64,000 nucleotides of DNA, taken from NCBI GenBank assembly GCA_963807605.1, contig CAWECG010000004.1, positions 192,001 through 256,000 of the forward strand, in the 5' to 3' direction. The DNA comes from Candidatus Bathyarchaeota archaeon (lineage in GTDB: Archaea > Thermoproteota > Bathyarchaeia > 40CM-2-53-6 > RBG-13-38-9). Within the stretch, counting starts at the first letter, position 1, and each line of letters starts with the position of its first letter. The translations under genes and the position numbers were made by a program. The notes beneath the pieces are model-generated. The model did not search any database, was not told the origin of the DNA, and saw only the letters and a program-made list of their open reading frames with translations. Shown piece after piece: positions 21,557-30,967 of the stretch.

Positions 21557-21586
21557 TATACCATCGTCACCACATTGACTGCCCAC

Positions 21587-21635
21587 TTGACACACCCCTG
21601 CCTAAAGCAGGGAGCCTTCTTGCTGAATTTGGTAA
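21587..21635 (-). mobile_element. IS200/IS605-family end remnant (hairpin-bearing end, no transposase)
   Basis: On the - strand: GAAGGCTCCCTGC-TTTAG-GCAGGGGTGTGTCAA, a stem-loop followed by TCAA, like IS605/IS1341 right ends. Confidence 0.55.
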
Positions 21636-21712
21636 GCGCGCTTGCTGTCTCTGGACTTGCAGATTTCTAGCGGCGTACGCATAGACGACTCAAGAACAAA
21701 TGGTGTTGACTC

Positions 21713-21925
21713 ATGGGTCAGTCCTTGAGTTTGGCGTTGAGGGGGGCTGTCGATGTCACCGCGGTACCTTCTGAGCTTCTTACGCAGTTGATTGCCGGGT
21801 TTGAAAGCGGAACTGGGATGGTTACTGTTGAAGCGTTTGTGGAGGGTATCCGCCGAGCATTCTACGTCTCAGGATTCATGGCGGCCTTAGGCATCTTAAC
21901 ATCGCTTGTCAGAGGCAGAGTATGA
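21713..21925 (+). pseudogene. C-terminal fragment of a DHA2 (EmrB/QacA) MFS transporter
   Basis: GQSLSLAL...AFVEGIRRAFYVSGFMAALGILTSLVRG corresponds to the last two helices only. Confidence 0.6.
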
Positions 21926-21989
21926 TGATGCTCAGCTGCGCGGCGCTTTTAAATACTAATAGGCGTGACGGTTTTGATGGTGTCGGAGT

Positions 21990-22397
21990 ATGAAGATACT
22001 AGTGTCCATCGATACGTCAAAGGCTGCTAGGAAGGTTGTAGCCTTCTCATGCGGATTGGCTAAGAAGCTAGAGGCAAGAGTCACTATTCTTCATGTGATT
22101 ACAGTTCCTACAGGAGTCGCAGTCGGAGTAGATCCAACATCCTTTCTGAAGGCAGGTGAGGAGTATCTGGCCAATTTCAAGCGCCAGGCAGAGAAGTCTG
22201 GAGTCAGAGCATCTACGCGCCTGGAGACTGTTTACGGTAATCCTGCCCACAGGATTGTAGAATTGGCTAGGGATGAAAGATTCGATCTGATAGCATTAGG
22301 GGCTATGGGAGAGAGTGAACTGCGAGACCTTCTTCTGGGGAGCGTCGCACACACAGTGTCCAGAAACGCCTCATGTCCAGTCCTGATTGTCAGATAA
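21990..22397 (+). CDS. Universal stress protein (UspA family)
   Basis: KILVSIDTS, GNPAHRI, DLIALG, LLGSVAHTVSRNASCPVLIVR. Confidence 0.93.
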   Translation: MKILVSIDTSKAARKVVAFSCGLAKKLEARVTILHVITVPTGVAVGVDPTSFLKAGEEYLANFKRQAEKSGVRASTRLETVYGNPAHRIVELARDERFDLIALGAMGESELRDLLLGSVAHTVSRNASCPVLIVR

Positions 22398-22460
22398 GTC
22401 GTGCCTGAACTAACCAGCAGTAAAGGCGTGTGAGAAGCACTTTACTACGTATGAATCACA

Positions 22461-22508
22461 GTTCAAATTTAGGCGCTCTCACCAGCTACGACACACACAC
22501 AAAAAAAA
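22461..22508 (+). repeat. Island site family, copy A (X-core-Z)
   Basis: GTTCAAATTTAGGCGCT-CTCACCAGCTACGA-CACACACACAAAAAAAA. Confidence 0.85.
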
Positions 22509-22516
22509 GAATCAAT

Positions 22517-22564
22517 GCCTAACGGTTCAAATTACGACGCTCTCACCAGCTAAGGTACACACAG
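22517..22564 (+). repeat. Island site family, copy B (X-core-Z)
   Basis: GCCTAACGGTTCAAATTACGACGCT-CTCACCAGCTAAGG-TACACACAG. Confidence 0.85.
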
Positions 22565-22676
22565 ATTAAAACGATAACGCTTGTTTTCTGACTGAAGATA
22601 CGGAATGGTAATGACTGGCTCTGCGTCGAAGAATTCGACGCAAAACTGCAATGAACTTAACGTGAGTGGTTTAATC

Positions 22677-24303
22677 TTAGTGTAGTTTGGCGCCGCACTT
22701 TATGCAGAAGTCGTTGGCGTCGGGATTTTCTGTTCCGCATTTTCCGCAGTAAACCATTCCAGGTGTTAGGGGTGTTTTCGTTGGTTGGGTGGGGGTTGAT
22801 TTTCGTCGACTCCGCAACGCGACCACAATGATGACGACGGCCAACAAGACCATGCCTGCAAGTATGAGGAGTTGGTTTTGCTGGATCACACTCATCAGGT
22901 CGCTTGATGTTTGAGTTGAGGAGGTTGAGGTTTGCGTTGCTGTTGCTGCGTTAACTGCTAGGACTAGGTTGCCGACATGAGTTAATCCTCCTCCACTCCC
23001 GGTTACCGTCAACGTATACGAACCAGTTGGTACATCGCTTGGCAATGTAACCGTGAGCGTCGAAGCGAAGTTTGGAGTTCCGGAGGGACTGCTGAAGACT
23101 CCGCTGGCGCCCGAAGGCAATCCTGAGACGGACAATGAAACCTGCGAGTTGAAGCCGTTGAGGGCGGTAACGCTCACGGAGTACGATGTCGTCTGTCCCT
23201 GAAGCACACTCTGAGAGGGGGGACTCACACTAATTGCAAAATCAGGGGCAGCCGAAACGATGAGAGTTACGGAGGCTGTATGGGTTACCCCACCTCCACT
23301 CCCAACGATGGTTAGCGTGAACGTTCCAGGCGAGACTGAGGACGCCACAGTAACACTTAGTGCTGAAGTAAATGGAGGTGTTCCTGAGGTTGGGTTAAAT
23401 GACGCGGACACACCGCCGGTAACCCTGACACGCTGAGAGCAACACTCTGCTGTGGCCCTGTTACCGGGTTCACGGCGACAGTGTAGCTTGCGCTCCCACC
23501 AGGAGTGGCGCTCTGCTGGGTGGGTGAAGTGGATAATGAAAAATCAAATTGCGCTACCGGTTGCGTTGTCGTTGGTACTGCTGGTCCGACAGTGAACGTG
23601 GTGCTCATTACGTTATTGCTGGGGTTCGGATCGTTAATCGTCGAAACCGACCAGGTTAACGTGTGTGTTCCTAGCGTTGCCGAACCACGGCGTCTGCGTG
23701 TTTACACTAGCCGGGGTTGCCAGTTGGTCCAGGGTAGGAGAGGGAACCCCCTCCCCACGAAGCACCATCAATTGTGCATTCCACATTAACAATCTGCGGA
23801 TATGAACCCGATGTCGAGAGTGCAACAAACACCGCGCTGAAAGTTACGGAGTCACCAACTTGAGGGATAGAAGGAGTTAGTGAGACTGACTGGATCGCCC
23901 AGTCCGTAGATACAGATGCCGATCCAACCACTGAAAAAAGTTTCTCTCCTAACTCAGTAGAGCCTCCGCCTGTTTTCAAGAACGAGACTGCCGCAAAGTA
24001 ACTTCCCGGAGTGATTATTCCAGGGACATTCACCTCGTAGTCTAACCCACCACTGATGCTCATCGGTGAGGCCTCCCAGATGGGCGTAACGCTGAAAGTA
24101 GGCCGAACAAAAACAACGGCCTTGCCGTTATACCCTGGGTCAGTGTAAAACGAGATCACGAAGGGTAAACCAGCATGTATGGGAGCTCCTGGAACGCCTA
24201 CGTGAACGTGCAAAACCCCTTCTACATTCTGAAAGAGCATTACAGATGAGATAACAACCACAAGTAAGATTGCAATCGTCGATTTAGCTAGCAAACCTTC
24301 CAA
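22677..24303 (-). pseudogene. Cell-surface protein (signal peptide, CARDB/Ig-like domains, Ser/Thr-rich repeats, TM helix, cytoplasmic zinc ribbon) split by three frameshifts
   Basis: ORFs 23707-24303, 23357-23608 and 22677-23411 join into about 541 aa with indels near 23714, 23684 and 23413; repeated DF.LS.SP...SY.V.V...VSLSVSGLP units; C-terminal YCGKCG..FCIKCG. Confidence 0.7.
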
Positions 24304-24385
24304 TTCTCGAGATTAAGTAGATAGGTCACGAAAGTATTTGAGGATTTACAAGTGTTCCTTTGATTCTCTGGGGAGGTGGATTGTA

Positions 24386-24412
24386 GGCCTAGTGGTGCGC
24401 ACACACAAAAAA
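24386..24412 (-). repeat. Island site family, degenerate copy C0 (Y-core)
   Basis: - strand TTTTTTGTGTGTG-CGCACCACTAGG. Confidence 0.45.
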
Positions 24413-24425
24413 TTAAAGCCTGGCA

Positions 24426-24465
24426 GTCCAAAATAGGATGCTCTCATCAGCTAAGGCACACACAA
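24426..24465 (+). repeat. Island site family, copy C (X-core-Z)
   Basis: GTCCAAAATAGGATGCT-CTCATCAGCTAAGG-CACACACAA. Confidence 0.8.
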
Positions 24466-24602
24466 CACTCCCAAGATTTACCACTTACTACTACACAAAC
24501 AACGAATCCTATCCCAACTGATACCGAACGGAAAACAAGTTTAGCACGCCATAATCGCCGGTTTCTCCAATGTCGAAGGGTTTTGCCACGTTCTTTTGCA
24601 GA

Positions 24603-25463
24603 CTAGAGGATAGCGTTCGCAATGTGGGCTCTCTTCGGTCCGTGAAGACCGTCTCGGCGATCGCGGAAATATCGAGCATCAGCATCCGTAGCTGATAGGA
24701 ATGACGCTCTCGAAAAACCCAACCCTTGCAACTTTGAGACCAGGTCATTTGGCTCGAATCGCGTAAGCCATGGCTCACCCTGCGCTGCCGCAAGTGCAGC
24801 AGTCGAGTGCGAAGGTTCGGTGCTCGTTTCTTTCACCTCTGAAGTCGGAGAGGCGAAGTCAAAAATGATCTCGCTTGACCGTGGGAGTGAAGCTACGAAG
24901 CGGAATACGACATCAACCGTGCTCGTCCTTAGGTACATCATGACACCGAGCCACGAAAAAAATGCAGGCTTTCCAAAATCGAAACCACTGTTACCCAAAC
25001 GCTCACGTAGGGAGGTGGTCTCAAAATCAAGAGAAACAAACTCGACGTTAGATGGAGTTTCTATCCCCGCCAAGGTCAACCGTTCGCGTTTCGAGCGTTG
25101 GCTCGCCACATGGTCCACTTCGAAAATGCGCAACGTTGTCGCCCAATGAGGTTGTCGATAGGGGAACGAGTCTAGGCCAGCGCCCAACATCAAATACTGC
25201 CTAACCCCATTGCCGACCGCTTCAGCCAGAAGATCCTCCGCATACCGGCTGCGCAAAACGATGTGCGATCGTAGCCCTCTCATCCTCGACGTGCGAAATC
25301 TATTCGGATTCAAGCGAATTTGCTCGAGTATTGATGTGCGAAGGAGCTGAAGCACGATAGGATCATCGAGAACCCTTGGTTCGTCATCAATAAGTTGGTG
25401 AACCGCACGAAGCACCGCCGCACCCAACGCGGTACGGCTAGGACGACGTTCCATCACATGCAT
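24603..25463 (-). CDS. SAM-dependent methyltransferase, leucine carboxyl methyltransferase (LCM/TIGR00027)-like
   Basis: SRTALGAAVLRA, RSRYAED, QYLMLGAGLDS, FEVDH, WLGVMMYL. Confidence 0.9.
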   Translation of the reverse strand: MHVMERRPSRTALGAAVLRAVHQLIDDEPRVLDDPIVLQLLRTSILEQIRLNPNRFRTSRMRGLRSHIVLRSRYAEDLLAEAVGNGVRQYLMLGAGLDSFPYRQPHWATTLRIFEVDHVASQRSKRERLTLAGIETPSNVEFVSLDFETTSLRERLGNSGFDFGKPAFFSWLGVMMYLRTSTVDVVFRFVASLPRSSEIIFDFASPTSEVKETSTEPSHSTAALAAAQGEPWLTRFEPNDLVSKLQGLGFSRASFLSATDADARYFRDRRDGLHGPKRAHIANAIL

Positions 25464-25608
25464 TCCGCCTCAAGAGCGGTGCAGAAATACTTCAACGTAA
25501 CAACTTCCGGATCTGAAGTCGCGAGCTACGCTAAAAGTCTTCGATACAGATCTCAAACATCATGAGGGAAAGAAGTTGGAGACACATATGATGTTGAACT
25601 CAACTCCA

Positions 25609-25657
25609 GTGTGTGTGCCTTGGCTGGTGAGAGCACCCAAAGTTGAACCATTAGATT
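25609..25657 (-). repeat. Island site family, copy D (X-core-Z)
   Basis: - strand ATCTAATGGTTCAACTTTGGGTGCT-CTCACCAGCCAAGG-CACACACAC. Confidence 0.85.
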
Positions 25658-25676
25658 TCTCCGTCGTTGGATCGCT

Positions 25677-25700
25677 TGGTGGGAGTATCGGGATTTGAAC
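25677..25700 (-). repeat. tRNA 3'-end-like fragment (island site copy D2)
   Basis: - strand GTTCAAAT-CCCGATACTCCC-A-CCA, i.e. T-loop, 12 nt, discriminator and CCA. Confidence 0.65.
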
Positions 25701-25890
25701 AGATGAAGAGAATCTATTGTTGCCTAGTTACAATCAAAGGTTCAGTCCCCGAAAATGTTGCAGAAACCAAAATCCTATCATAAAATTATGGAACCTTAAA
25801 ATAATCTACCTTGACACTTGCAGCAAGAACCCGTATTTCATGATCGAGGAACCAGCTTAGGAGCAAACATGAGGCCTGGGGAGAGGTTCA

Positions 25891-27633
25891 ATGGTTGAGT
25901 ACAAGTGGGTTGTTCTTTCGAACACTACACTCGGCACGTTGATGGCTTCAATAGACATCACTATAGTAGAGATTGCGCTTCCAGCCATCTTCAGAGGTAT
26001 CGCGATTGACCCGTTCACGTCCTTCGAATACTTGCTCTGGATACTCTTCGGCTACAGCATAGTAACTGCAACCCTACTCGTCACCTTCGGTCGAATATCA
26101 GACATCTTCGGCAGAGTGAAACTCTACAACCTGGGCTTCCTAGTGTACACTGTCGGCTCCGTGCTGCTCTACCTGACGCCTAACACTGGAAACTTGGGAG
26201 CCATTGAACTGATCTTATTCAGAATCGTCCAAGGAGTAGGAGGGGCCTTCCTATTCTCGAACAGCGCAGCGATCATTACCGATGCTTTTCCAGCAGAGGA
26301 GAGAGGCAAGGCATTGGGACTCAACCAGTTAGCTTTCCTCGGAGGCTCGTTTGTCGGGTTGGTGCTTGGTGGGGTACTGGCCGTCTATGACTGGCGATAC
26401 GTGTTCCTAATCAGCGTGCCATTCGGGGCTTTCGGGACAGCGTGGTCGTATTGGAAGTTGAAGGAGCTAGCAACCATACGAGAGGGGCAGAGGATCGATG
26501 TGTGGGGGAACATTACGTTTGGCGTGGGCTTGACGGTTTTCCTCATAGCGATAACCTATGGACTACTACCTTACGGCACCTCGACGATGGGATGGGGCAA
26601 CCCATGGGTAATAAGCGGCCTGATCTGTTCAGCTGCACTGCTAGTTGCATTTCCGTTCATCGAGACACGTGTTCAAGACCCAATGTTCCAGTTGCACCTT
26701 TTCAAGAGAAGAGCCTTTGCCGCGGGTAACTTCGCCGCTTTCCTAGCGTCTATTTCGAGAGGTGGGGTATCGCTACTCCTGATTATACTGCTGCAAGCGA
26801 TTTGGCTGCCGCTGCACGGCATCAATTATGAGGATACTCCTCTTTGGGCCGGGATCTACATGCTTCCGTTTACCGCGGGGTTCATAGTCATGGGCCCACT
26901 CAGCGGCTACCTCTCCGACAGGTATGGTGCGAGAGGCTTCTCGACTGCGGGCATGCTCACAACGGCAGTTGGGTACTACCTGCTTTCAACGTTCCCATAC
27001 AACTTTGCTTATCTTTCGTTCGCTGCGGTCATCTTCTTGATGGGAATCGGTATGGGTATGTTTGCTTCTCCGAATACAGCATCCGTAATGAACTCGGTGC
27101 CAGCCGAGCATAGAGGCTCCGCATCAGGAATGCGGAGCACCTTACAGAACACAGGTTCGGTCATAGGCCTTAGCATATTGTTTACGTTAGTTCTCTTGGT
27201 CTTATCGAGAGACATGCCTTCTTCACTTGCAGCAGCTGCCTCACAGGCTGGCGCCCCACAGTTATCCTCCGCGTTAACCCAGATTCCTCCAACAGCCGCA
27301 GTATTCGCGGCTTTTCTAGGCTACAACCCGATGGGCACGGTACTGAAGCAGCTTCCTTCGAAACTTACGAACTCATTGAGCCCGCAGGCGATCGCAGTGG
27401 TCACCGGAAAAGTGTGGTTCCCAACAGCGATCGCTAACGCATTCATGTCATCCCTAGGATTTGCTCTGTACTTTAACGCGGCATTAGCTGTTGTGGCTGC
27501 CGCCGCATCAGTGCTTCGCGGGAAGAGATATGTTTACGGGACGGGAGATGAAAAGCTGGAAATAGCTACACCAATAGTGAAGACTTCTAAAAGGGCAGAC
27601 CCGTTGCCTAACTCAGAAAGTCGCCCAAAATGA
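25891..27633 (+). CDS. DHA2-family (EmrB/QacA-like) MFS transporter
   Basis: LSNTTLGTLMASID, FGRISDIFGR motif A, FRIVQGVGGA, ERGKALG, about 14 TM helices. Confidence 0.93.
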   Translation: MVEYKWVVLSNTTLGTLMASIDITIVEIALPAIFRGIAIDPFTSFEYLLWILFGYSIVTATLLVTFGRISDIFGRVKLYNLGFLVYTVGSVLLYLTPNTGNLGAIELILFRIVQGVGGAFLFSNSAAIITDAFPAEERGKALGLNQLAFLGGSFVGLVLGGVLAVYDWRYVFLISVPFGAFGTAWSYWKLKELATIREGQRIDVWGNITFGVGLTVFLIAITYGLLPYGTSTMGWGNPWVISGLICSAALLVAFPFIETRVQDPMFQLHLFKRRAFAAGNFAAFLASISRGGVSLLLIILLQAIWLPLHGINYEDTPLWAGIYMLPFTAGFIVMGPLSGYLSDRYGARGFSTAGMLTTAVGYYLLSTFPYNFAYLSFAAVIFLMGIGMGMFASPNTASVMNSVPAEHRGSASGMRSTLQNTGSVIGLSILFTLVLLVLSRDMPSSLAAAASQAGAPQLSSALTQIPPTAAVFAAFLGYNPMGTVLKQLPSKLTNSLSPQAIAVVTGKVWFPTAIANAFMSSLGFALYFNAALAVVAAAASVLRGKRYVYGTGDEKLEIATPIVKTSKRADPLPNSESRPK

Positions 27634-27729
27634 CTCTAGACTAAAACAGAAACCGGAAGCAAGGCTCAGAAGAACTCCAAGTGAGACCTAGCACGCGCTT
27701 CTATTCACTTTACAGTTCTGAGGATCTAT

Positions 27730-27900
27730 GTGGAGACAAAACAGTTCAAGCGGATACAGGTGGCTGTTAATGGCTTCGAGAACGCCACTCGCGCAGCCAG
27801 GGTTGCCATTGCGTTAGCAAAGAAGTTCGGAGCGTAACTCATTGTATGCCATATCATTCCAACGCCAGTCTACTCTGCTCAAACAGTTTTCACCGTTCCA
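27730..27900 (+). pseudogene. Universal stress protein pseudogene (N-terminal part)
   Basis: VETKQFKRIQVAVNGFENATRAARVAIALAKKFGA*LIVCHII with in-frame TAA at 27835-27837; C-terminal half absent. Confidence 0.7.
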
Positions 27901-28160
27901 AGTGACACAATGCGAGGCTTACGGATCGAACCGATTTGCGGAGACGTTGGAAAGGCTAACTTGGTAGACACAAATGAAAATATGGCATCTAACTGTGCAT
28001 TCTATGCCTGGGAACTGGCTTGTTGAAACCAACGCCACACGCTCTGTTTGTCCGACTTCGTTGAGGAACACAATATAGCACGCGTGTTTCTAGATAAATG
28101 AGTTGAGTGAATCGCTAACGTTTAATAGCGTGCATGTTGAGCACAGCGGCAGTGAATGAT

Positions 28161-28412
28161 ATGCTAAAATGGGAATATTGCAGATTGTCCCTTCATGGTC
28201 AGAAGCCGATAACTGCCAAAGCAGTGTATTACAAAGCAGATGGAAAGCACACTGTGGACATCTCTGAAGGTGTGGACGCTGATGACGTAAGAAGCTCTGC
28301 CGCAGCCTACATGGCGAAAATGGGCGTTGAGGGTTGGGAGCTGGTGAGTGCTTCCGACACTATTGGGGCATTGGAGATAGTTTTCTATTTCAAGCGTCCA
28401 CTTGAAAGTTAA
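28161..28412 (+). CDS. DUF4177-like small protein
   Basis: KWEY...MGVEGWELVS...FYFKRP signature. Confidence 0.7.
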   Translation: MLKWEYCRLSLHGQKPITAKAVYYKADGKHTVDISEGVDADDVRSSAAAYMAKMGVEGWELVSASDTIGALEIVFYFKRPLES

Positions 28413-28437
28413 CAAGCCATACTATTTGGTAGTGGTG

Positions 28438-28496
28438 CCATATCTGGTTAGCGTGTGTGCCCTTTGGTGAGAGCACCATAATTTGAACTGTTAGAC
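28438..28496 (-). repeat. Island site family, copies E (X-core-Z) and E0 (core)
   Basis: - strand GTCTAACAGTTCAAATTATGGTGCT-CTCACCAAAGGG-CACACAC-G-CTAACCAGATATGG. Confidence 0.8.
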
Positions 28497-28498
28497 AG

Positions 28499-28521
28499 TT
28501 GTGTGTGCTCATCAGATAAGG
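28499..28521 (+). repeat. Island site family, copy F (Y-core)
   Basis: TTGTGTGTG-CTCATCAGATAAGG. Confidence 0.75.
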
Positions 28522-28680
28522 TCCAATCAAGCTGTTTTCTGGGGCTAATATGAGAGTGTCTGGGCTAGGGCAAGGGACTATGGGTCAGACATATGGGGAT
28601 AGTTGGATACAACGATATTCTCCGTATTACTATACTTCCCTTACGTTGTGCTGCTCTAGTAGTATTCAACATAGGTAATT

Positions 28681-28787
28681 GGAATAGTACGTCTCAAGAC
28701 TACTCTAGTACTATTCCCTGGGCTATCCCCCATTATCCCTCTGGCACAAATGACATTATCCCCCGTTATCCCAAGATCTCTGGTACA
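28681..28787. repeat. Inverted repeat plus iteron-like direct repeats
   Basis: GGAATAGTAC (28681-90)/GTACTATTCC (28708-17); TATCCCCCRTTATCCC at 28724-39 and 28757-72 (33-bp period); TCTGGYACA twice. Confidence 0.7.
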
Positions 28788-28808
28788 TTGTCCTTTCTTA
28801 GGTGACCT

Positions 28809-28937
28809 ATGGACCGTGGAATTGAGGAAGTTCTACGAGAATTACTGAGCTTGGCAGGAAAGAAGCCCCTATCCAATGATGACTTGCGCTCACCAGATAA
28901 GGTACGCACAAAAATAGTCTACTCTAACCTTAGCTAG
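28809..28937 (+). pseudogene. Short ORF apparently truncated by an island site
   Basis: AGGTGA SD then MDRGIEEVLRELLSLAGKKPLSNDDL; the repeat core begins at codon 27 and a stop follows within the next copy. Confidence 0.4.
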
Positions 28938-28956
28938 TGAGCACACATGCACAAAA
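28885..28956. repeat. Island site family, copies G (core-Z, +) and H (Y-core, -)
   Basis: + strand CTCACCAGATAAGG-TACGCACAAAAA (core 28889-902); - strand TTTTGTGCATGTGTG-CTCACTAGCTAAGG (core 28928-941). Confidence 0.75.
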
Positions 28957-29305
28957 CCGTTCATTACGTTGGGAAAAGAATTCCGCGAACTCCTTCTTTG
29001 TTTTACGAATGGCTCGCTGCGCTTGGAGAATGCTACGAAAAAGAAGTGTCTTAGGAAGTCTAGAGAGATGGAGAAGGAGGTTTTGTCTAGTCTTTGGTTT
29101 CTCACTTGACAACTACGACTAGTGATGCGACTGCGACTAGTCCTGCCTAGGCATACGGAGCTGTTCTGATCAGAACCGGAGGTTTTGTTTGATATCCTAG
29201 GAGGCAAACATTACTTCGGGATTTAGGAGACCGAGAGGGTCAAAGAACGATCTCTGAAGCTTTCGTAGCCTTCGTCACCCCACTCATTCCTAGCGGGCGC
29301 TGGCT

Positions 29306-29890
29306 CTACCGCTTGAGCTTCTCCCAGTAATACTTGCGCAACTTGGCGACTTTTGGCTCGATGACTATCCGGCAGTAAGACTGTTCAGGATTCTTTTCGA
29401 AGTAATCCTGGTGGTAACCCTCGGCCCTGTAAAATGCCTTGAACGGCTCGACTTGGGTCACTATGGATGAATCCCAGACTCCTGTGCTATTGATTTCCTT
29501 GATGACCTGCTCAGCGATTGCCTTCTGTTCGTCGCTATGGTAGAAAATCACTGAACGATATTGAGAGCCCACGTCGTTACCTTGACGGTTTAGCGTAGTT
29601 GGATCATGCACAGTGAAAAAGATCTGCAAGATTTCCCTAAAGGAGATTACATTAGGGTCGAAGGTGATTTGTACGGCCTCCGCATGTCCTGTTCTCCCCG
29701 TACATACTTGTTCATAAGTCGGATTCACGACTATACCGCCAGAATAACCCAACTCTACTTTCTCCACACCATTCAACTGATTGAAAACAGCTTCTGTGCA
29801 CCAGAAGCAGCCACCACCAAGCGTTGCCACTTCCATGCCTCTGCGAGAAGCGATCTTCAATCGTTCTTGGATCATAATGCCACTATCCAT
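29306..29890 (-). CDS. msrA: Peptide-methionine (S)-S-oxide reductase
   Basis: [39 protein letters not shown]; true start may be a little downstream. Confidence 0.97.
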
Positions 29891-30929
29891 TTGTCAATAG
29901 CGTCCTTGCAGTTGTTACACGACGGGACTGAGTATTAGATGTGTTCGCTCGTTTTGCATCACGCCTCTTCCTTGTCATTACGCTTACGAATACAACCGCG
30001 GCCACTCCAACTAATGCTAGATAAGGTGTCAATTCTGATGGGACGTGGAAGCCATGGTCCTGTATCTTGATTTGATTTCTTATTCTAGAGATCAAACCGT
30101 CATTGTAGATCAAAAGTGTGAGGGCGGTTGTCTCTGCATTGGCTGATCCGATAGGTTCACCATGTCCAGTGCTTAGGGTGGTGATTCCCCCGTTGGCCTG
30201 TTGCTTGCTCCAGAGAACCTCTTCGAGCTTTTCAAAGTCCGGTAGGTATGTCCCTGTGACTTTGACTGCGTACAATAGTAGAGCAAGTTTGAAGTTAAGT
30301 CCGAAGCCGATGTCTGAGGGAGCGTTGTTAGGCCAGAGGAATTGTTGTCGAACTCCAGAATCTACGAGACACGTGCCGTTCCACATGCCGTAGACTTCTC
30401 TGACTAGGGCTTGTGCTTCTGTTTCCTGTCCCCTGTAATACTTGGAGAGCGCTTCACAGAGCATGTTGTCTGCGTACTTGAAGAAGGGATTTCCGAGTGT
30501 CCCGTTGTGGATCCTGATGAGAATCGCATAGTCTTCAGTTTGTTTGATTATGATATCTTGAGCCTGCGTAGCCGATCCTACCGGGTAACCCAAGATCGCT
30601 TCAAAATGGTTGCTTGGTGGAAGATCATATGAGTTAATGGTTCCATTGACCTTCTTAGAGATCTCCGGAGCGTAGGGTTGGAGTGCGTAAGCTGCAAGCA
30701 GATTGTCTGAGTAAAGCCAGAAGGTCCGCTGATAACTGCAGTTATAGTTCGGATACTCAACTCGCCTTAGCCAATGAACTCCCTTATCTTCGCTCTCATA
30801 GATCAAGCCAACTTGAGGGTTGTAATGGCTGACCAGATAGTCGACTGCGCGATGGATGCGGCTGTCGCTATTAGATGTCACAGGTGAGCCTACTGAGGTC
30901 AGCAGAAGAATCAGTACAAGAAATCTCAT
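29883..30929 (-). CDS. Secreted, C-terminally anchored hypothetical protein (possible alpha/alpha-barrel)
   Basis: Signal peptide, [24 protein letters not shown]-terminal TM helix with basic tail. Confidence 0.7.
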
Positions 30930-30967
30930 AACAAGACGCAGCGAGACATCTCACAGTCCTTTGTCTG

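Follow-up and report, generated by a model that had tools for sequence, protein, structure and literature searches.

The stretch analysed here, called the window throughout, comprises 64,000 nucleotides of a contig of a Candidatus Bathyarchaeota archaeon (CAWECG010000004.1, positions 192,001 to 256,000). At positions 21557–30967 of the window, an accessory island lies between a nitroreductase gene and hypE. Its cargo includes genes for a secreted or membrane protein, a methyltransferase, a transporter and a 92-amino-acid protein, and short sites built around a 14-bp core recur among them. As judged from sequence comparison, these sites are very probably the integration products of a family-2-like casposase, a Cas1-solo enzyme, on Bathyarchaeia transposons without PolB. 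The island is absent from a same-genus genome (G001), in which hypE follows the nitroreductase gene after ~150 bp, and four other relatives have unrelated genes between hypD and hypE. Cargo thus differs among relatives, as an earlier, sequence-only reading of the island had anticipated.

Leader–core sites in the window and the genome

The core matches the window nine times at no more than two mismatches, against 0.99 matches expected, and none of 100 shuffles reached nine. By inspection, 11 cores were placed, with first bases on their own strands at 22478 (+), 22542 (+), 24399 (−), 24443 (+), 25631 (−), 25683 (−), 28451 (−), 28471 (−), 28508 (+), 28889 (+) and 28941 (−). The sequence-only reading had listed about 11 copies in both orientations, and all the listed copies are present. 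It had noticed the family only within 6.5 kb, a limit that did not hold: a grammar-based scan of the 2.65-Mb genome returned 178 hits, 170 of them strict, with two hits in the reversed genome and none in a Markov shuffle of contig C4. The genome's sites form 29 clusters that together cover ~180 kb (~6.8% of the genome) and lie between accessory genes.

The core is always 14 bp long and consists of seven conserved bases ending in CCA, followed by a variable half. Besides the form first proposed, there are a second common type ending in AGGGACA and CGCACCA-type variants. The left side of the core is taken by leader X, by ATATCCCC or by a tract of the (TG)n, (TCG)n or (TGG)n kind; to the right lies the reverse complement of one of the left-side tracts, or unique DNA. 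The flanks originally named X, Y and Z occur as described. Y and Z represent one element end read on opposite strands. This end is a short tract with (CA)n, (CGA)n or (CCA)n units, of which the (CGA)n and (CCA)n types and a further GGGGATATAG end had to be added to the original scheme. A minority of ends start with GGGATATA and resemble the end of the Methanosarcina mazei casposon.

The leader carries TCAAATY at −15 to −9 of the core. Together with the first seven core bases, it reproduces a tRNA 3′ end in register, with a T-loop followed by 16 bases to CCA, so that the start of the core corresponds to tRNA position 70. Most leader copies are missing the T-stem and can therefore be regarded as tRNA mimics. 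The casposase of Aciduliprofundum boonei reads TCAAATC at −15 to −9 and duplicates 14 bp (PMC6614799), while that of M. mazei duplicates 14 bp starting with CGCA at tRNA-Leu (PMC6977970). The core, formerly taken for a crossover spacer, is better explained as a duplication of the target site (TSD), 14 bp in length.

An integron attC array was considered, since the integron core is present within the leader in reverse-complemented form and the sites separate single genes. Single sites, however, fold no better than shuffles (z of +0.6 to +1.6), show no dyad symmetry and are mixed in orientation. The best integron-integrase score (TIGR02249) was 41.7 against a cut-off of 265 among the three of five tyrosine recombinases scanned, and no integron integrase was found. 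The lack of dyad symmetry refutes the attC reading, to which we assign a negligible probability, in agreement with the sequence-only reading, which had held the sites not to be attC.

The casposase and its elements

The genome encodes one full-length Cas1-solo protein of 402 amino acids (C3:803495-804703), outside any CRISPR-cas locus. It matches the M. mazei casposase (6OPM), its closest solved structure, over residues 4–397, a stretch that includes the helix-turn-helix (HTH) at the C-terminus, with an E-value of 6e-72. Its predicted placement as family-2-like rests on this full-length similarity and on the HTH. The element that houses the casposase gene measures 9 kb, ends in (CGA)n tracts and is bounded by identical TSDs of 14 bp. 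A (CA)n element of 4 kb comes next, and then a third core, giving the order leader, repeat, insert, repeat, insert, repeat. No other cas gene was found in the casposase element, and no HNH nuclease was detected among the nine of its proteins scanned; one HNH gene was observed near the casposase in a relative (L082). Seven further casposase fragments occur in the genome, and five of the eight copies lie within 2 kb of a site, compared with 13% of random positions. The sequence-only reading had proposed a trans-acting site-specific enzyme that stacks accessory cassettes, of the tyrosine or IS110-like class, and a genome scan for site clusters with a linked recombinase. The clusters, the stacking and a linked enzyme were all found, but the enzyme is the casposase.

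Loci from relatives labelled Bathyarchaeia were picked through casposase or site hits, and kin among them are not independent. Sites flank casposase homologs in 14 of the 16 relative loci examined. Whole casposase elements within identical TSDs, of four different sequences, were found at L059, L079, L080 and L083. With its threshold relaxed, ARAGORN called a tRNA-Gly gene at the insertion point of the L080 element, which has a target of its own 76 bp inside. At L083, an inner element with its own TSD pair occupies the element-borne target of an outer element, so that two different TSD pairs are perfectly nested. L081 presents a real tRNA target followed by three near-identical cores in a row. 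Exact TSDs also bound cargo-only elements (L056, L066 and L077), of which that at L056 combines a (CA)n end with a GGGGATATAG-type end, and the TSD-bounded cargo element at L073 holds only a Cas1 remnant. At C3:30973-58372 of the genome under study, a tRNA-Gly gene with the 3′ end of the L080 target precedes, by ~0.5 kb, a site cluster that is among the largest, and it is possibly the ancestral landing site in this genome.

Exact TSD pairs were found for 10 of 23 cases in the relatives, against 1.6 expected from global shuffles and 4.8 from shuffles within loci (p = 0.002). In this genome, an orientation-aware test found partners with at most one mismatch in 17 of 49 cases, compared with 9.7 expected (p = 0.007), which is a modest signal. 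The compared sequences themselves demonstrate how the target is built, that 14 bp are duplicated, that insertion is both tandem and nested, that elements carry targets of their own, that cargo-only elements exist and that there is linkage to the casposase.

Several observations weigh against the casposase interpretation. A locus from a relative entered the comparison by way of a casposase or site hit, so these loci do not form a random sample. This genome shows no excess of exact TSD pairs (2 found, 2.7 expected), and naive nested, stack-wise pairing of its ends yielded no excess of TSDs or end types. The enrichment of near-identical but not of exact partners fits old, rearranged islands. Only one TSD pair could be assigned among the 11 window sites, most of whose ends are scrambled. 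The methyltransferase gene of the window is flanked by two inward-facing left junctions, an arrangement that a single insertion cannot yield. Finally, the sole full-length casposase reads proline in place of the catalytic histidine (His236Pro; codon CCT at C3:804200-804202, equivalent to L006:2065-2067), one base away from a histidine codon, while the residues of the catalytic E/H/E triad are present in 120, 118 and 120 of 120 homologs across the clade. The substitution implies that this copy is dead or mis-assembled, and the predicted system is probably immobile in this genome or dependent on visiting elements.

The sequencing runs compared contained just 5–15% of the words and consisted of contigs of related strains; joints seen in a single contig do not show habitat. 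A contig from a soil run (X1) aligned to position 22477 of the window and again from 24582, with 149 other letters between, and the alignment of a contig from a peat run (X7) ended at 28927. Each is a single contig and weak evidence, and both breakpoints fall at core edges; the sequence-only reading had expected strain breakpoints in the core. A tyrosine recombinase acting on att sites, with circles excised and inserted by crossover within the core, could produce the X1 deletion between two direct leader-core copies as well as the mixed junctions. The genome encodes five tyrosine recombinases, two of whose genes lie within 0.6–0.7 kb of a site. The linkage is inconsistent, however, with the other three lying 3–22 kb from the nearest site, and the leader-core junctions are without inverted arms. 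Tyrosine recombinases use an overlap of 6–8 bp, for which a 14-bp asymmetric spacer is too long. The leader register and TSD length instead fit casposase biochemistry, and it is the casposase that TSD-bounded elements hold; we consider tyrosine recombinase att sites very unlikely. Two of the tyrosine recombinase genes, C1:287794-289005 and C2:56541-57421, were observed to end at or close to a leader-core junction.

Targets or junctions of an IS110/IS1111-like recombinase are an exceedingly improbable alternative. A single DEDD domain match exists in the genome, but it is a broken 118-amino-acid fragment whose contig, C5, yielded no sites. No IS110 gene was present in any TSD-bounded element examined, and IS110 elements are not known to make 14-bp duplications.

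Casposase integration can be described as follows. By sequence, the target is a tRNA 3′ end or a mimic of one, a T-loop leader followed by the core, and insertion duplicates 14 bp, so that one side of the element reads leader-core-end and the opposite side end-core. If the enzyme behaves like family 2 casposases, the two 3′ ends of an element would attack the target in a staggered fashion, and gap filling would follow. Repeated use of one target builds tandem arrays in which elements are separated by end-core-end junctions. The Y-core-Z arrangement, predicted by the sequence-only reading to be the junction of a circle, is instead the TSD common to two tandem elements. Where an element carries a leader-core inside its ends, later elements nest there. 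Each element would thereby supply an imitation tRNA end on which newcomers can land, and accessory genes would pile up in nested fashion. Cargo-only elements, which have casposon-type ends and exact TSDs, may be mobilised in trans, a capacity that casposase biochemistry suggests; artificial mini-casposons have been mobilised in this way (PMC10359463). Ends of different elements may combine freely and, together with core-core recombination, could scramble old islands.

The clade of this casposase may reach beyond Bathyarchaeia, as a 72%-identical protein (P0019) is named for Candidatus Njordarchaeum guaymaensis. At L076:1-11215, a casposase with an ATPase/AEP-like operon adjoins a type III CRISPR-cas locus (cas10, RAMPs and cas1); no sites were detected near this casposase.

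Element ends, replication genes and known systems

No PolB gene is annotated in eight casposase loci of 17–21 kb, and the two PolB genes of the genome lie away from its casposase element. A 33-codon stub inside a (CA)n end (L074:6320-6418, minus strand) may resemble the C-terminus of a casposon PolB but is too short to search. Beside the casposase, a divergent operon recurs that encodes a basic 123-amino-acid protein, a 157-amino-acid protein and a P-loop ATPase; the gene for the 157-amino-acid protein is present in 9 of 14 casposase loci. The DxD of this protein is invariant and its His nearly so, and it has a GDD motif as well. The AEP-TOTE profile matched 7 of its 83 homologs weakly. Foldseek gave no match at an E-value of 0.001, the best hit being the LigD polymerase domain (E-value 0.013). 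VIA gave Z 6.1 to HP0184 (95 aligned, root-mean-square deviation 3.3) and Z 5.2 to ASFV PrimPol. These comparisons weakly suggest an AEP primase-polymerase-like protein, a label best treated as a lead. For the 123-amino-acid protein, the ESM Atlas yielded no usable hit. More speculatively, the AEP-like protein and the ATPase might copy the element in place of PolB.

The tails at element ends are 2–68 nt long, with a mode of 8–10 bp. Their repeat units are mixed, and their lengths are unequal at the two ends of one element. Genome-wide, about a quarter of the simple-repeat ends bear their own leader-core 32–60 bp inside. Such irregular tails could also arise if the AEP-like protein, with its DxD, His and GDD residues, tailed loose DNA with (TG)n, (TCG)n or (TGG)n and the casposase captured the product, in a form of kilobase-scale spacer acquisition. 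Consistent with such ends de novo, ~82 of 175 tails adjoin unique DNA, and the A. boonei casposase requires just five terminal bases (PMC6614799). However, about half of the ends fall in recurring families, slippage accounts for tail length, and the fold support for an AEP is weak. Unique ends interrupt a long reading frame in only 7% of cases, against 58% at random positions, which disfavours blind tailing of random fragments. We therefore regard ends made de novo as improbable. Chance (CA)n tracts could possibly serve as surrogate ends for new cargo, since 47 such tracts lie away from the sites. It is doubtful that the system is an active gene-capture platform, in which a PolB-less casposase with its AEP-like partner files DNA with given or found short repeat ends at self-propagating tRNA-mimic leaders. 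If real, such a platform would stand between casposons and CRISPR adaptation as an extant intermediate, taking up entire genes in place of spacers. Genome-wide, a palindrome of the type TAGCGCGCGCTA is found far more often than expected, in many cases near element ends.

It has been proposed that CRISPR spacer acquisition descends from casposons and that arrays originated when insertion recurred at one target. The casposons known so far are large elements that encode PolB, with one to three of them per genome. Family 2 casposons, such as those of A. boonei and MetMaz-C1 of M. mazei, carry PolB and terminal inverted repeats of 25–602 bp (PMC6614799, PMC6977970, PMC4779613, PMC10359463), and tandem casposons have been described (PMC4779613). 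The elements studied here share with them a Cas1-solo enzyme with a C-terminal HTH, a 14-bp TSD at a tRNA 3′ end, the leader motif at −15 to −9, tandem re-use of one target and, in a minority of ends, the GGGATATA start seen in M. mazei. Unlike them, they are without PolB and have an AEP-like/ATPase/basic-protein operon beside the casposase; their ends are short, unequal simple repeats with a mode of 8–10 bp rather than inverted repeats of 25–602 bp. They also bring their own tRNA-mimic target and nest, giving ~170 junctions per genome, mostly around cargo-only elements. The missing PolB and long inverted repeats argue for a variant of casposons rather than a member of family 2.

Family 5 casposases, proposed from hot springs, are Cas1-solo proteins mostly without PolB that branch close to type I-A Cas1 and are proposed to belong to non-self-replicating transposons (PMC9755687). 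They resemble the present system in being Cas1-solo and mostly PolB-less, but the protein described here is closest to a family 2 enzyme among solved structures, and target arrays of the present kind are not described for them (PMC9755687). As in CRISPR arrays, each Cas1-family insertion copies the repeat next to the leader, producing leader-repeat-insert-repeat; here, however, the repeats measure 14 bp, the inserts are 0.5–10 kb long and have defined ends, cas2 and an effector are absent, and nothing implies a guide RNA. Integrons and Tn7-type hot spots likewise gather accessory genes between recurring short sites, whereas the sites here have no attC hairpin or IntI and are duplicated targets and element ends that travel with the elements.

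The literature searched, which did not cover subscription papers, held no description of casposons in Bathyarchaeia, of non-autonomous casposons or of a casposase with a primase, and we did not find self-carried tRNA-mimic targets, simple-repeat ends or such a density of sites in it. A Cas1-solo clade with ~170 junctions in ~7% of one genome would offer natural leader-repeat-insert-repeat arrays that resemble an oversized forerunner of the CRISPR array, and would provide a route for accessory-gene turnover in Bathyarchaeia. The predicted substrate rules (leader, 14-bp target and ~8–10-bp ends) are directly testable in vitro, and the very short ends may suit targeted DNA insertion.

The island in the window

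The left part of the island is a junction paired with an internal target. Leader X, a tRNA T-loop mimic, lies at 22461–22477 (+), with TCAAATY at −15 to −9 in the same register as in the A. boonei casposase leader. The 14-bp core of the left junction follows at 22478–22491 (+). The element end, at 22492–22541 (+), consists of a (CA)n tip, an A-run, a spacer and an element-borne leader X, whose own core at 22542–22555 (+) is occupied by a further (CA)n end. Cores 22478 and 22542, like cores 25683 and 25631, represent such junction and internal-target pairs. The first cargo gene (22677–24303, −) encodes a secreted or membrane protein with a C-terminal zinc ribbon and is broken into several frames, through decay or assembly indels. 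It is followed by a degenerate right junction with a (TG)n end and a CGCACCA-type core (24386–24399, −).

An element-borne leader and core at 24426–24456 (+) provide the left TSD, a rare CTCATCAG variant at 24443–24456, of a 4,051-bp passenger-only element (24457–28507, +). This nested composite has 10-bp inverted (CA)n ends and itself sits in an element-borne target. Between its TSDs (24443 and 28508), 13 of 14 bases agree, and the variant that both share occurs at only three GCTA/GATA-type cores genome-wide. Within the element, an LCM-family S-adenosylmethionine methyltransferase gene (PF04072; 24603–25463, −) is followed by two stacked leader-core units with end tips (25610–25700, −; cores 25618–25631 and 25670–25683). 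An MFS transporter gene (PF07690) and a truncated usp-like piece (25891–27633, +) come next, and then the gene for the 92-amino-acid protein (28134–28412, +). Homologous DNA of the latter occurs at other loci in three relatives; the initial label of DUF4177 for this protein had no Pfam hit at an E-value of 0.001. The right end of the element includes an inward-facing element-borne target (28438–28498, −; cores 28458–28471 and 28438–28451). The right junction (28499–28521, +) has a (TG)n tip and the core 28508–28521, which is the right TSD.

Beyond the element, a 360-bp segment (28530–28888, +) is 88% identical at two other loci, with a different junction each time. It is followed by a leaderless core (28889–28902, +), then by an end tip with a leader that breaks off at 28927, and by the core of a further right junction (28928–28941, −). 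The sequence-only reading had seen the site at 28889 as cutting an open reading frame, a cut that is putative. The 26-codon stub recurs at two other loci with no full-length homolog found, and no uninterrupted version of the frame at 28810–28888 was found in relatives (105 genomes).

Two other repeats were observed in the genome. A separate IS-like repeat is present in ~16 copies, mostly on contig C4, and C4:662758-663448 is a perfect 30-bp tandem repeat of 24 copies that is unrelated to the sites.

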